Both the position numbers and the translations under genes were made by a program. A model generated the notes under the pieces. That model ran no database searches and was not told the DNA's origin. It worked only from the letters and a program-made list of their open reading frames with translations. Positions 9,434 to 16,785 of a stretch of 35,452 bases of DNA are shown here, in pieces. Position 1 is the first letter of the stretch. Every line of letters begins with the position of its first letter. Origin of the DNA: a virus (taxonomy: Duplodnaviria > Heunggongvirae > Uroviricota > Caudoviricetes); the IMG/VR virus record IMGVR_UViG_2563366975_000004; one strand, written 5' to 3'.

Positions 9434-9856
9434 GTGGCAAAAGTTTTTACACAAGAAGAGCGGGAAAAAATTAAAGGGCTGATCGTGGAATTCGTACGCC
9501 TTAACGGACGAGGCACGATTCGGCAGTTATCGGATGAAATTGGTGTCAGTCATGCGTCTGTCGGTCGTTTATGCATGGAGCTGGCCGCCAGTGGTGATGT
9601 TTACAATTCCGGTTACGGAGTATTCCCGTCTGAGCAGGCGCGCAAGGACTGGCAAAACGCCCGCAAAAAACTCTCAAGGGCAAAGCTGAAGAAACCATCT
9701 GTGGTTGATCCGGACCTTATCTGGCTATTACCAGACGGCGAAATACGCCGCTACGACAGGCGTCAGAACATAATCTGTCGCGAGTGCCGGAAGAGCGAAG
9801 TTATGCAGCGCATATTGTCGTTTTATCAGGGTAATTTTCAGGAGGTAGCGCAGTGA
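9434..9856 (+). CDS. Hypothetical protein with HTH-like N-terminus (140 aa, GTG start)
   Basis: AGGAGGG RBS before GTG; segment IRQLSDEIGVSHASVGRL resembles an HTH. Confidence 0.45.
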   Translation: MAKVFTQEEREKIKGLIVEFVRLNGRGTIRQLSDEIGVSHASVGRLCMELAASGDVYNSGYGVFPSEQARKDWQNARKKLSRAKLKKPSVVDPDLIWLLPDGEIRRYDRRQNIICRECRKSEVMQRILSFYQGNFQEVAQ

Positions 9857-10347
9857 GTGCACCGGCAACCATTCTTGATATGTGCTGTGGCAGCCGCATG
9901 TTCTGGTTCGATAAGAATGACGACCGGGCGATATTTAGCGATATCAGAAAGGAAGAGCACACATTATGTGATGGACGAAGACTGATAATTAGCCCTGACC
10001 TGATAGCAGATTTTCGTGCATTACCATTTGCAGACGCATCGTTTCCGGTTGTTGTATTCGACCCTCCGCATCTTGAGCGTGTTGGTGATAACGCCTGGAT
10101 GGGAAAGAAATATGGACGGCTGAATAAAGATACCTGGCGTGATGATTTGCGGCAGGGATTTAAAGAAGCCTTTCGTGTGTTGCGGCCATACAGCGTTCTG
10201 ATTTTTAAATGGAATGAAACGCAAATACCTGTTCGCCAGATATTGGCACTGACCGACAGAAAGCCTGTTATCGGTCAACGAACAGGAAAGGGTGACAAGA
10301 CCCACTGGATTATTTTTATGAAGGAGGCGACCAGTGAGCAAGATTGA
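9853..10347 (+). CDS. Small phage DNA N6-adenine methyltransferase, Dam-like (164 aa)
   Basis: SAM-binding-like DMCCGS motif and catalytic-like VVFDPPH (DPPY-type) motif; size typical of small phage Dam proteins. Confidence 0.6.
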   Translation: MSAPATILDMCCGSRMFWFDKNDDRAIFSDIRKEEHTLCDGRRLIISPDLIADFRALPFADASFPVVVFDPPHLERVGDNAWMGKKYGRLNKDTWRDDLRQGFKEAFRVLRPYSVLIFKWNETQIPVRQILALTDRKPVIGQRTGKGDKTHWIIFMKEATSEQD

Positions 10348-11706: not shown

Positions 11707-12222
11707 ATGGCGTTAACACACCGCGAACTCTGTCAGATTGCGTACAAGTTCCTTAAGCGCAACGGGTTCAAGGTTTGCTTTCATGACCGCTTTGTTGCTG
11801 TAACCAGTACCGGAGAACAGCCAGATGCTATGGGATTCAGAAATTCAGCATCATGCCTGATAGAGGCGAAGTGTTCTCGTGCTGACTTGTTGGCAGATAG
11901 AAAAAAGCGTTTCCGTAAAAATCCCTCACTTGGCATGGGCGACTGGCGATTCTTTATTAGTGAGCCGGAAATTATTTCAGTTGAGGATTTACCTCCCGGC
12001 TGGGGATTACTTCACGTTGTTAACGGAAGAGTACGGAAAGTACATGGATGGCCCAGGGGTAATTGCTGTTGGGGTAATCCTGACGATAAGCCATTTACTG
12101 GGAATAAGCAGGTTGAATGCGATTACATGTTATCTGCATTAAGGCGCATGGAGTTGAGAGGGCACCTTAATGAAATATATGACGGTGTGATTGTTAATAA
12201 GAAAGAAGGAAACGCGGCATGA
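11707..12222 (+). CDS. Hypothetical protein, possible PD-(D/E)xK nuclease fold (171 aa)
   Basis: D...IEAK-containing segment (DAMGF...CLIEAKCS) compatible with a PD-(D/E)xK core; weak assignment. Confidence 0.4.
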   Translation: MALTHRELCQIAYKFLKRNGFKVCFHDRFVAVTSTGEQPDAMGFRNSASCLIEAKCSRADLLADRKKRFRKNPSLGMGDWRFFISEPEIISVEDLPPGWGLLHVVNGRVRKVHGWPRGNCCWGNPDDKPFTGNKQVECDYMLSALRRMELRGHLNEIYDGVIVNKKEGNAA

Positions 12223-12626
12223 TCACTATTACCAAAGGGCGACTGCTGACAATCAAGCAGTGGCGCGAAACATACGGACCGGGTAGCAACGTTGTACTGC
12301 CAGCAGAAGAAGCGGAAGAACTGGCACGAATTGCACTGGTATCGCTGGAAGCAGAGCCGGTGGCAAAGATTATAGCTCATTACCCATTAGGAGTTGACGT
12401 AGGCAAACAAAAGTTCGTACAGGCCATTGGAGAGCTTCCTGACTTTGGCGGATATCTATTTGCCGCCCCTCCAGCGCCGATAGTGCCGGAAGAAGCAACT
12501 CCGGAAAACGTAGAAATGCTCTCTGGCTATGTTTCCACGTACAAATTAACCGATAGCGAGCGCGATATTGCTGCCGAAATATGGAACGCCTGCCGCGCCG
12601 CTATGCTTCATGGGAAAGGAGAGTGA
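12219..12626 (+). CDS. Hypothetical protein (135 aa)
   Basis: ORF translationally coupled to upstream gene; starts MITITKGR, a module repeated at 12902. Confidence 0.45.
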   Translation: MITITKGRLLTIKQWRETYGPGSNVVLPAEEAEELARIALVSLEAEPVAKIIAHYPLGVDVGKQKFVQAIGELPDFGGYLFAAPPAPIVPEEATPENVEMLSGYVSTYKLTDSERDIAAEIWNACRAAMLHGKGE

Positions 12627-12901: not shown

Positions 12902-13045
12902 ATGACCACTATTACCAAAGAACGTATTGAATTGTTCATTAAATTTTCAGGAGGCGGTACTGTGAGTGAAATTAGCTATCAGGCTTCAATTACCGCTGGC
13001 ATTCGCATCAAAGGAGAGGAGCATGGAAATAAAACCAGAGGATGA
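12902..13045 (+). pseudogene. Chimeric remnant ORF (47 aa) fusing MTTITK, SEISYQ and AGIRIKGE modules
   Basis: Contains gtgagtgaaattagctatcag (Ea22-type start) joined to gctggcattcgcatcaaaggagag, which also ends the Ea22-like gene near 11680; looks like a deletion/recombination scar. Confidence 0.35.
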
Positions 13046-13379
13046 GTTAAGCAATATCGTTTTATTTCCGGTAAAAGAGGATGACCCTCGTAATCAGGTT
13101 AATTTTCTTTATGAGCCATCGGAAAGACCATATTGTCATCACGCCTCTGTCCGGGTTGACGAAAAAGAGCGTCAGGTCCGCTGTAAAATCTGCGGTGCAG
13201 TTGTGGAACCATTTGACTGGATGCTCTCTGTGGCGAAAAGAGAAACCAGACTGGCAGATGATGTAAGGCTATTGCGCCAGGAGGAACAGGAAAGGCGAAA
13301 AAATATAGAAAAGCTAATTCAGATTGAGCGTAACGCGAAAGCGCGGATACGCAGGGCGACAAAATCCAGAACTGAATAA
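13023..13379 (+). CDS. Hypothetical protein with Cys/His cluster and basic coiled-coil C-terminus (118 aa)
   Basis: AAAGGAGAGGAG RBS; CHH...CKIC motif suggests a zinc ribbon. Confidence 0.45.
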   Translation: MEIKPEDELSNIVLFPVKEDDPRNQVNFLYEPSERPYCHHASVRVDEKERQVRCKICGAVVEPFDWMLSVAKRETRLADDVRLLRQEEQERRKNIEKLIQIERNAKARIRRATKSRTE

Positions 13380-13472
13380 TTAAATTTAGCTCTGTTAAAA
13401 ATTTAATCCTTAACCGGAGGGATTTCTGCACCCTCAGAACATCAGGAGGCCGCCCGAAAGGGCGGTAGTTAA

Positions 13473-13655
13473 ATGCGAAAGTTTAAAATAATTATTGAAA
13501 CGGGAATAGCCGGTGGAGATTTCGAGGATGAATTCGAAGTGGATGATGATGCGACGCCTGATGAAATACATGACGAAGCAAAAGATATTTTCTTTAACTA
13601 CTGCAATTACTCATATCACGAAATAAAAGACGAAGAGGAAGAGCAAAATGGCTGA
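13473..13655 (+). CDS. Small highly acidic protein (60 aa)
   Basis: D/E-rich sequence; AGGAGG then a GNRA-loop hairpin immediately before the ATG. Confidence 0.45.
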   Translation: MRKFKIIIETGIAGGDFEDEFEVDDDATPDEIHDEAKDIFFNYCNYSYHEIKDEEEEQNG

Positions 13656-13824
13656 TTTTGGTTCAACTAAATACAACGTCAGTTTTGAAGCATGGCATGA
13701 ACTGTTAATGGACTATGCAGAGTTACGTGGTGGCAGTGCTGCTGATGCTGAAGCATGGCGTGATGATTATGAAGCAGGAAAAACTCCGGTCGAAGCATAT
13801 TGTGATGAGTGGGGCGATGAATGA
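13648..13824 (+). CDS. Small acidic protein (58 aa; not in ORF track)
   Basis: Hand translation MADFGSTKYNVSFEAWHELLMDYAELRGGSAADAEAWRDDYEAGKTPVEAYCDEWGDE; overlaps neighbours at both ends. Confidence 0.4.
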   Translation: MADFGSTKYNVSFEAWHELLMDYAELRGGSAADAEAWRDDYEAGKTPVEAYCDEWGDE

Positions 13825-14137
13825 GCGAGGTTAATTATCAGGAAGGGCATGAAACGGCGGGGCAAGCAAAAACAGTGGCATGGCGATATCGCTACGTGAA
13901 AAAAAAGGCGTTACGGACTTTCAGGGGAAGTAGTGGTCTGGTGACTGGAAATATGTACCGAAAAAAGAGGATTGTAACGACAGGCCGAACTATGAAATTC
14001 AGGCCTTATTCACTGCCCCGCCAGTCCCGGTTACATCAGAAGAACTGGTTAAAGCTGTGCACTTTTATGAACAACTAAAACGCGAAAATCCACCAGCATC
14101 CGGAAACCTGATTACAGATTCCCAGATAAGGCAATGA
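13821..14137 (+). pseudogene. Degraded Ea22/DUF551-like gene with frame disruption
   Basis: Starts MSEVNYQ then becomes K/R-rich nonsense after an A8 homopolymer (about 13897..13904); a protein-like segment WSGDWKYVPKKEDCNDRPNYEIQALF... sits in another frame with no start. Confidence 0.35.
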
Positions 14138-16404: not shown

Positions 16405-16785
16405 ATGACTGAACGCATAGAATTTGTTTTGCCTTACCCGCCAACGGTGAACACTTACTGGCGTCGTCGTGGCAGCACATATTTTGTATCAAAAGCCGGG
16501 GAGCGTTATCGCCGGGCAGTGGCGCTTATTGTTCGCCAGCAGCGGCTGAAATTAAGCCTGTCCGGAAGGTTGGCAATAAAAATTATTGCAGAACCACCGG
16601 ATAAGCGCCGCCGTGACCTGGACAATATTCTGAAAGCGCCGCTGGATGCGCTGACGCATGCGGGGTTGCTAATGGACGATGAGCAGTTTGATGAAATCAA
16701 TATCGTTCGTGGTCAGCCAGTATCTGGTGGACGTCTGGGGGTGAAGATTTACCCCATAATGCATGAAGAGCAGGTCAAAAAATGA
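16405..16785 (+). CDS. rusA: Holliday-junction resolvase RusA (126 aa)
   Basis: N-terminal FVLPYPPTVNTYW and acidic catalytic region RRRDLDN...D typical of RusA. Confidence 0.85.
   Translation: MTERIEFVLPYPPTVNTYWRRRGSTYFVSKAGERYRRAVALIVRQQRLKLSLSGRLAIKIIAEPPDKRRRDLDNILKAPLDALTHAGLLMDDEQFDEINIVRGQPVSGGRLGVKIYPIMHEEQVKK

Follow-up and report, generated by a model that had tools for sequence, protein, structure and literature searches.

What two adjacent, overlapping genes for small and highly acidic proteins do for the elements that carry them, and how these genes are translated, is the question raised by a locus in the caudoviral sequence IMGVR_UViG_2563366975_000004. The analysed stretch as a whole (35,452 nucleotides (nt), called the window below) matches, at 100% identity, a lambdoid prophage that is inserted next to ompW in Escherichia coli Ecol_316; the genes lie on the plus strand at positions 13473–13655 (protein 1) and 13648–13824 (protein 2). 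An initial annotation regarded their products as candidate DNA-mimic anti-restriction or anti-defence factors. The present study leads to a tentative answer, put forward as a serious possibility: by analogy with known phage proteins, the pair may be stoichiometric acidic decoy inhibitors of host DNA-handling or defence proteins, encoded in an early-operon cassette. The terms "DNA mimic" and "anti-restriction" are guesses within this wider class of acidic decoy inhibitors.

Protein 1 consists of 60 amino acids (aa), including 20 D/E and five K/R residues, with a net charge of −15 and an isoelectric point (pI) of 4.05; protein 2 (58 aa) contains 15 D/E and four K/R residues, and has a net charge of −11 and a pI of 4.06. 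In negative charge per residue, they rank first and second among the 249 window open reading frames (ORFs) of at least 45 aa, which bears out the extreme D/E richness claimed in the initial annotation, and the acidity is conserved in both families; the coordinates of the two ORFs, their overlap and the positions of the AGGAGG motif and the hairpin upstream, all given there, were also found to be right when checked against the sequence. Both start codons are backed by family-wide N-termini (MRKF.. for protein 1 and MADF.. for protein 2). The exact sequence of each protein is present on at least 1,000 contigs, and the public labels of both are "hypothetical" or "prophage protein".

Protein 1, designated "DUF7167 family protein" by PGAP, matches the Pfam family DUF7167 (PF23768) with 55.1 bits at a cut-off of 24.4, residues 2–53 covering profile positions 1–60 of 60, and the PHROG family phrog_1997 with an E-value of 9e-31. 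An exhaustive HMMER search indicated that DUF7167 comprises 99 clusters at 50% identity, and that nearly all members are stand-alone proteins of 50–60 aa; the divergent family alignment contained no stretch conserved enough for pattern definition. AlphaFold 2 (AF2) modelling with a 50-sequence alignment (predicted local distance difference test score, pLDDT, 90.2) predicted a β-hairpin with strands 2–8 and 17–23 and a helix at 29–43, followed by an extended stretch in which hydrophobic residues alternate and by an acidic tail modelled with low confidence. Over 50 diverse members, the mean net charge per residue is −0.205, with extremes of −0.305 and −0.13, and the conserved acidic columns, in protein 1 numbering 9, 19, 22, 24–26, 29–31, 33–34, 38, 50, 53 and 56–57, are distinct from the conserved hydrophobic columns; since the two sets separate, the model is compatible with an acidic exposed face on the sheet and helix. 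Tandem-duplicated members, found in two of the 99 clusters, suggest a dimer, and protein 1 is thus probably dimeric.

Protein 2 has no family match in Pfam or NCBIfam, and was assigned to phrog_519 (E = 2e-22), where it aligns with profile positions 76–137 of 143. All its tested relatives align solely to positions ~72–143 of this profile; as no tested member matches the N-terminal columns, these do not represent a real partner domain, and protein 2 is, judging by the profile alignments, a stand-alone domain. The suggestion that the N-terminal half of phrog_519 is a fusion partner such as DUF1187/RcbA was rejected on the same grounds, DUF1187 being phrog_5753. The AF2 model based on a 70-sequence alignment (pLDDT 89.1) contains an extended N-terminus and a three-helix bundle (13–27, 34–42 and 47–55). 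The conserved core is mostly aromatic or hydrophobic (F13, W16, L20, A24, W37, Y41 and A50), with the addition of G44, and the mean net charge per residue of 70 relatives is −0.167. In both families the conserved acidic columns lie outside the hydrophobic core columns; the two products, which come from unrelated families, would both be uniformly acidic on their exposed faces.

In complete E. coli genomes, the pair occurs at 2,178 (protein 1) and 2,182 (protein 2) places, in 1,871 and 1,884 of the 5,426 genomes, respectively; on the chromosomes the two are effectively always together, and an intact protein 2 gene follows that of protein 1 in 78 of 80 sampled viral contigs. The families are nevertheless independent, as relatives of protein 2 occur without protein 1. 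Divergent DUF7167 genes are found in the pL operon of P22- and lambda-like prophages, in the order N, (Ral), Phage_P22_Y8K6, DUF7167, cIII, Kil and recombination genes, and another member (locus L105) lies 3' of GamL-RecT-Gp157. In Klebsiella Guernseyvirinae, the DUF7167 gene overlaps the start of a DUF2800/PD-(D/E)XK exonuclease gene, which is followed by genes for a Gp2.5-like single-stranded DNA-binding protein (SSB) and a DNA polymerase; in Enterococcus Herelleviridae, it comes directly after a DUF3850/ASCH gene.

Relatives of protein 2 are still more widely dispersed. They are carried by 561 plasmids, 516 of them conjugative. In IncI2 plasmids such as pHNSHP45 (NZ_KP347127.1), the original mcr-1 plasmid, the homolog follows a DUF1187 gene (annotated as rcbA in one record), and the operon, with genes for a CaiF/GrlA-family regulator, DUF1187, the protein 2 homolog, SPFH and NfeD at positions 16746–19426 of locus L014, continues into those of the type IV secretion system and adjoins repA; the literature search found nothing on this CaiF/GrlA-DUF1187-protein 2-SPFH-NfeD module. 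In about 190 Ackermannviridae, a relative is encoded just 3' of the major capsid gene, some Autographiviridae phages have one as well, flanked in phiKDA1 by the DNA polymerase and exonuclease genes, and in Alux-21 a relative is found beside ParB-like and ATPase genes. In P2-like prophages (loci L106–L113), the gene comes directly after gpA and overlaps it, at the edge of the gpA–portal variable region; in phage P2 itself (L114), this slot is occupied by an unrelated DUF3850 gene (Orf91), and an identity of protein 2 with Orf91 was rejected, Orf91 being a DUF3850 protein. It was observed that the post-gpA slot is filled, in P2-like phages, by one of two kinds of gene, protein 2-family or DUF3850/ASCH, and that DUF3850, DUF7167 and protein 2-family genes recur together in varying combinations in P2-like phages and Enterococcus Herelleviridae. 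Phages EP_H11 and IME392 (95% identical) encode a NADAR protein with a protein 2 domain at its C-terminus; about 640 other phage records bearing NADAR contain no full-length protein 2 fusion.

As to translation, that of protein 2 would be coupled to protein 1 through the 8-nt overlap ATGGCTGA (13648–13655, plus strand), in conjunction with a Shine–Dalgarno (SD) motif, GAGGA (13635–13639, plus strand), which, as read from the sequence, lies 8 nt 5' of the ATG within the GAA-GAG-GAA-GAG codons of the EEEE tail of protein 1. This overlap resembles a portable junction for translational coupling, where the protein 2 module would recombine. The same 8-nt overlap was noticed at the ends of protein 1, of the IncI2 DUF1187 gene (L014, 18712–18719) and of a gene for a 140-aa protein on a Klebsiella plasmid (L017, 5001–5008); because the ATG-GCT-GA of protein 2 holds an out-of-frame TGA, any upstream gene read in that frame ends in "...G*" with an 8-nt overlap.

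Protein 1 would be translated from a split ribosome-binding site. Its SD, AGGAGG (13444–13449, plus strand), is 23 nt 5' of the ATG, and no ATG, GTG or TTG occurs within 14 nt after it. The interval between SD and ATG contains hairpin 2 (13449–13466, plus strand; arms GCCGCCC and GGGCGGU, loop GAAA; −15.5 kcal/mol, z = −3.0), which would shorten the spacing from 23 nt to about 7 nt. In two relatives with a protein 1 that is 74–80% identical (loci L115 and L116), the SD is AGGGGG and AGGAGG, respectively, both leader stems are intact, loops and spacer sequence are changed, and the effective spacer after hairpin 2 is 6–7 nt, compared with 7 nt here. The leader travels with the protein 1 gene over at least three upstream contexts, and the stem is kept in three leader variants and in two or three upstream settings; its three substitutions are all C-to-T and preserve G-U pairing. 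The loop reads GAAA, GTCA (in L116) or GGCA (in one locus). The spacing role suggested in the initial annotation draws support from the conservation of the stem and from a precedent in T4 genes 38 and 25; the GNRA loop that the annotation names is not conserved. More distant DUF7167 homologs have no such leader and possess an ordinary SD 5–8 nt upstream, within the preceding gene.

The leader contains another hairpin further upstream, hairpin 1 (13417–13435, plus strand), in which GAGGG (13417–13421) pairs with CCCUC (13431–13435) around a 9-nt loop, and which is present in both the minimum free energy and the centroid folds. Its 5' arm is SD-like (GGAGGG) and its 3' arm is anti-SD-like (CCCTC); in L115 and L116, the stem is kept and the loop is varied, and the near-identical loci include two variants of the 3' arm, one that loses a pair (three loci) and one that retains a G-U pair (two loci). 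The 3' arm could pair with the real SD at 13444–13449 instead, which would hint at a possible translational switch. The leader conserved in L115 and L116 starts near AATCCTTAAC (about 13404); an AT-rich inverted repeat, TTAAATTT...AAATTTAA, was noted at 13380–13406, just past the stop codon of the preceding zinc-ribbon gene, and is not kept in these two loci.

In the window, perfect hairpins rich in GC are not uncommon (19, including nested ones, compared with 7.5 ± 2.9 in random sequence), so the case for a function of hairpin 2 rests on conservation. Other such structures were noticed elsewhere in the window: a leader-like hairpin (CCCGCC, 4-nt loop) at 17686 and a AGCCCCTC-type hairpin that occurs twice, at 19865–19890 and 20328–20353, about 460 nt apart. 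Hairpin 2 was also considered as a terminator, a promoter element or an Rfam RNA; the predictions yielded nothing, and the Rfam search of the leader found no family match.

It is somewhat unlikely that hairpin 2 instead stabilises or processes the mRNA, hides a weak proximal SD as a repressive structure, or marks a recombination boundary at the DNA level. A GGGCGG sequence is indeed present in its 3' arm, 7 nt 5' of the ATG; three of the 80 loci, which have a different upstream context and retain the gene, carry other sequence in place of AGGAGG and part of the 5' arm; mosaic breakpoints fall at or within the leader element; and no compensatory double changes were seen in the leader stems of the compared loci. 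However, in all variants with the leader, AGGAGG or AGGGGG directly adjoins the stem, the post-stem spacer stays at 6–7 nt despite changes in its sequence, as a split ribosome-binding site predicts (PMC3014915), and no terminator was predicted. An assignment of hairpin 2 to the split SD type of T4 genes 38 and 25 is thus favoured by comparison of the leaders and by analogy, and it may represent a further natural case beyond the T-even phages.

Taken together, positions 13404–13824 would constitute a two-gene cassette of lambdoid prophages, consisting of the structured leader, protein 1 and protein 2, with no promoter of its own and transcribed within the phage early or delayed-early operon; promoter and terminator prediction around the pair gave no hits. 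The genes, their predicted folds, the conservation of charge, the distribution and the linkage being established, we infer from them the inhibitor mechanism and all of its targets. Each product would bind and block, stoichiometrically, a basic and probably nucleic-acid-binding surface of a host protein; gp5.9, Gam, Ocr and ArdA suggest by analogy that the protein so blocked could be a nuclease (RecBCD, for instance), a restriction enzyme or some further defence component, and phage or plasmid DNA would thereby be protected in the early period following entry or induction. This proposal is prompted by the conserved extreme acidity on compact predicted folds, the small size and the probable dimerisation, as well as by the placement among ral, cIII, kil, gam and recombination genes and by the spread over unrelated mobile elements. 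Such a spread is typical of counter-defence and takeover genes. Joint action is possible since the two are effectively inseparable in E. coli chromosomes. A more elaborate version, which is unlikely as a whole, holds that the pair presents two new acidic decoy inhibitor folds, perhaps acting jointly to disable a host nuclease or defence system (e.g., RecBCD or a type I restriction enzyme), and that protein 2 is a portable module of lambdoid, P2-like, Ackermannviridae and Autographiviridae phages and of conjugative plasmids, which recombines at its own start codon via ATGGCTGA.

The best Foldseek match of protein 2 in the PDB had an E-value of 3.7, sequence and profile searches of the PDB gave only spurious low-complexity matches for both proteins, and neither sequence nor fold searches revealed a likeness of either one to Ocr, ArdA, Gam, gp5.9 or any other solved protein. 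Neither protein matched the Ocr and ArdA Pfam families, and the pair had no match among the PADLOC defence models. The literature search found no paper naming DUF7167 or the protein accessions and no source that assigned a function; a mention of "gp142" as a virion protein was discarded, as it follows the numbering of a different phage. What remains of the anti-defence claim of the initial annotation is that both proteins are conserved, compact (in the models) and acidic, and that their relatives occupy accessory positions, or early ones linked to host takeover, in many unrelated mobile elements; kinship to Ocr, ArdA or other DNA mimics did not emerge. A fold with a clear unrelated function was also sought by structure prediction and fold search, and none was found.

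Several observations weigh against decoy inhibition. Neither protein is similar in sequence or fold to any characterised inhibitor, the literature and database records contain no experimental data on either family, and both peptides are absent from the supplements of two accessory-gene screens. Four acidic residues of protein 1 (EEEE) are encoded by the SD stretch of protein 2, so the acidity of its tail may partly be a by-product of codons that hold the GAGGA. The DUF7167 locus L105 already has GamL, which weakens a Gam-equivalent role for protein 1. The contexts are heterogeneous, e.g., post-capsid in Ackermannviridae and within a transfer operon on IncI2 plasmids; the idea that the IncI2 gene belongs to the plasmid leading region is unsupported, as it lies in a transfer-gene operon next to repA. 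The NADAR fusion, considered as a strong clue, was downgraded to a weak hint because it is limited to the single lineage of EP_H11 and IME392.

In the prophage, a regulator, a YdaT-like gene, a helix-turn-helix replication gene, DUF977 and a small orphan methyltransferase gene are followed by three Ea22-like genes and several short or degraded ORFs, then by protein 1, protein 2 and a degraded Ea22-like gene, and finally by hokD, DUF968, RusA and the Q antiterminator. The pair is thus part of a rightward operon, past the replication genes and ahead of hokD/DUF968/rusA/Q, in a nin-like position. The early accessory block of the initial annotation is confirmed in its accessory character and Ea22-like neighbours; the site itself is the rightward nin-like one and not the leftward early region. 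In the Shiga toxin (Stx) phage ArgO145, the same pair sits in the leftward exo-xis region, and on account of these two locations the pair behaves as a mobile cassette.

The stop codon of protein 2 shares ATGA (13821–13824) with the start of the next gene, an Ea22-like gene (13821–14137, plus strand) which PGAP flags as "frameshifted; internal stop"; its ArgO145 equivalent, annotated as ead/Ea22-like, is intact and 636 nt long. PGAP also flags 11707–11885 as frameshifted and 12219–12353 as partial, and from these three features the accessory block appears to be decaying around an intact acidic pair. The gene directly 5' of the leader (12966–13379; PGAP start 13023) belongs to phrog_1621; its product weakly matches a TFIIB-type zinc ribbon and is basic at the C-terminus. 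The methylase of the block, called Dam-like in the initial annotation (9853–10347, 164 aa), has no Pfam match, and the PADLOC models (MTase_II, E = 2.6e-73, plus orphan methyltransferase models) warrant only the designation of an orphan DNA methyltransferase, which by these profile matches it is. A second, larger N6_N4 DNA methylase gene is located at 18178–19227, with tRNA-Ile and tRNA-Arg genes after it (about 19277–19436).

Other functions can be envisaged for the pair. Both proteins might assist the DNA replication or recombination of the element itself, e.g., as a cofactor, chaperone or regulator that acts on a nickase or exonuclease, or as an acidic adaptor resembling an SSB tail, and not be host inhibitors at all, which we regard as distinctly unlikely. 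The neighbourhoods provide the basis for this idea: the relative of protein 2 in P2-like prophages is translationally coupled to the replication initiator gpA, other relatives are found near the polymerase and exonuclease of phiKDA1, the ParB-like and ATPase genes of Alux-21 and the DUF1187/RcbA gene of IncI2 plasmids, and the protein 1 family overlaps the PD-(D/E)XK exonuclease gene in Guernseyvirinae and occurs near RecT modules. However, these replication and recombination neighbours come from unrelated families in each element, so there is no single cognate partner; the presence of a DUF3850 gene after gpA in phage P2 marks that position as a variable accessory slot, and the lambdoid pair of E. 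coli is situated among Ea22-like accessory genes and not beside replication enzymes.

A role on the side of the lysogen or carrier, such as superinfection exclusion, modulation of induction or of the lysis–lysogeny decision, or an antitoxin-like activity, appears improbable. The pair is very frequent in prophages and that of ArgO145 is located in the exo-xis region, whose genes have an influence on lysogenisation and induction in lambda and Stx phages (PMC3824215, PMC8614690), but it is not homologous to lambda orf55, orf60a, orf61, orf63, ea8.5 or ea22; a BLASTP comparison with Orf55, Orf60a, Orf61, Orf63, Ea8.5 and Ea22 gave a best E-value of 0.086 over nine residues, and identities of protein 1 or 2 with orf60a, orf61 or orf63 were rejected on this basis. 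Relatives of protein 2 are tagged as "antitoxin" in two automated annotations; a type II antitoxin identity was nevertheless discarded, as neither an antitoxin match in Pfam or NCBIfam nor a conserved toxin partner was found and the neighbours differ in every context, the downstream gene included. The lack of a predicted promoter makes expression in a repressed prophage doubtful, lytic phages carry both families, and, as stated above, the PADLOC defence models do not match. That the ORFs have no present function and hitch-hike, linked within a mosaic module, is very improbable. The degradation of the downstream Ea22-like gene and of several upstream genes would agree with it, as would the codon variants of protein 2 among close relatives, 12 of them non-synonymous and eight synonymous (the corresponding count for protein 1 is biased, as loci were chosen for an identical protein); against this, both families persist at 35–50% identity in distant phages and plasmids, with conserved cores and confident predicted folds, and the reading frames are intact in 78 of the 80 sampled loci.

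The pair is carried by about a third of complete E. coli genomes, and relatives of protein 2 reside on hundreds of conjugative plasmids. If inhibition of host nucleases or defence is its true function, two very common families would gain a role in the establishment of phages and resistance plasmids in new hosts, and new minimal folds would be added to the acidic inhibitor proteins. Both genes belong to already catalogued families, and the leader hairpin would add one more case to an arrangement already described; the pair offers reasonable candidates for anti-defence screening and is not as yet a discovery.

Among known systems, T7 gp5.9 and lambda Gam are small DNA-mimicking RecBCD inhibitors encoded by early genes directly 5' of that for the phage recombination exonuclease, and gp5.9 is acidic. 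Protein 1 resembles them in being small, acidic and probably dimeric, and in Guernseyvirinae the DUF7167 gene is immediately upstream of an exonuclease gene; it differs in the lack of sequence or fold likeness to the solved structures and in that one DUF7167 locus encodes GamL as well. With Ocr and ArdA, which are elongated dimers of larger size, the pair shares a very high density of negative charge, its occurrence in phages and on conjugative plasmids, and presumed early expression; there is no match in Pfam, PDB sequence or fold, and the IncI2 homolog of protein 2 lies outside the classical leading region. With the lambda exo-xis proteins Orf60a, Orf61, Orf63, Orf55 and Ea8.5, the pair shares size, region (in ArgO145), Ea22-like neighbours and non-essential accessory status (PMC8614690), but not homology, the families there being DUF1317 and DUF1382 as opposed to DUF7167. 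NADAR enzymes, which reverse the DNA ADP-ribosylation by DarT, provide phages with a counter-defence (PMC11257639, PMC11543638). The resemblance to the orphan anti-DarT enzymes of phages consists in the protein 2 domain at the end of the EP_H11/IME392 NADAR protein; a NADAR domain is absent from protein 2 itself, and only one lineage has the fusion.

The closest parallel for the leader is provided by the split ribosome-binding sites of T4 genes 38 and 25, where a hairpin cuts the spacing from 22 to 5 and from 27 to 11 nt, mutations destabilising the hairpin lower initiation, and the arrangement is found in close relatives only (PMC3014915). The leader of protein 1 is unrelated to these in sequence, belongs to a lambdoid prophage, has a second conserved upstream hairpin with SD-like and anti-SD-like arms, and is described here from sequence evidence; as in T4, the SD is too distant (23 nt), a stable hairpin would restore a spacing of 7 nt, and close relatives share the arrangement while distant ones do without it.

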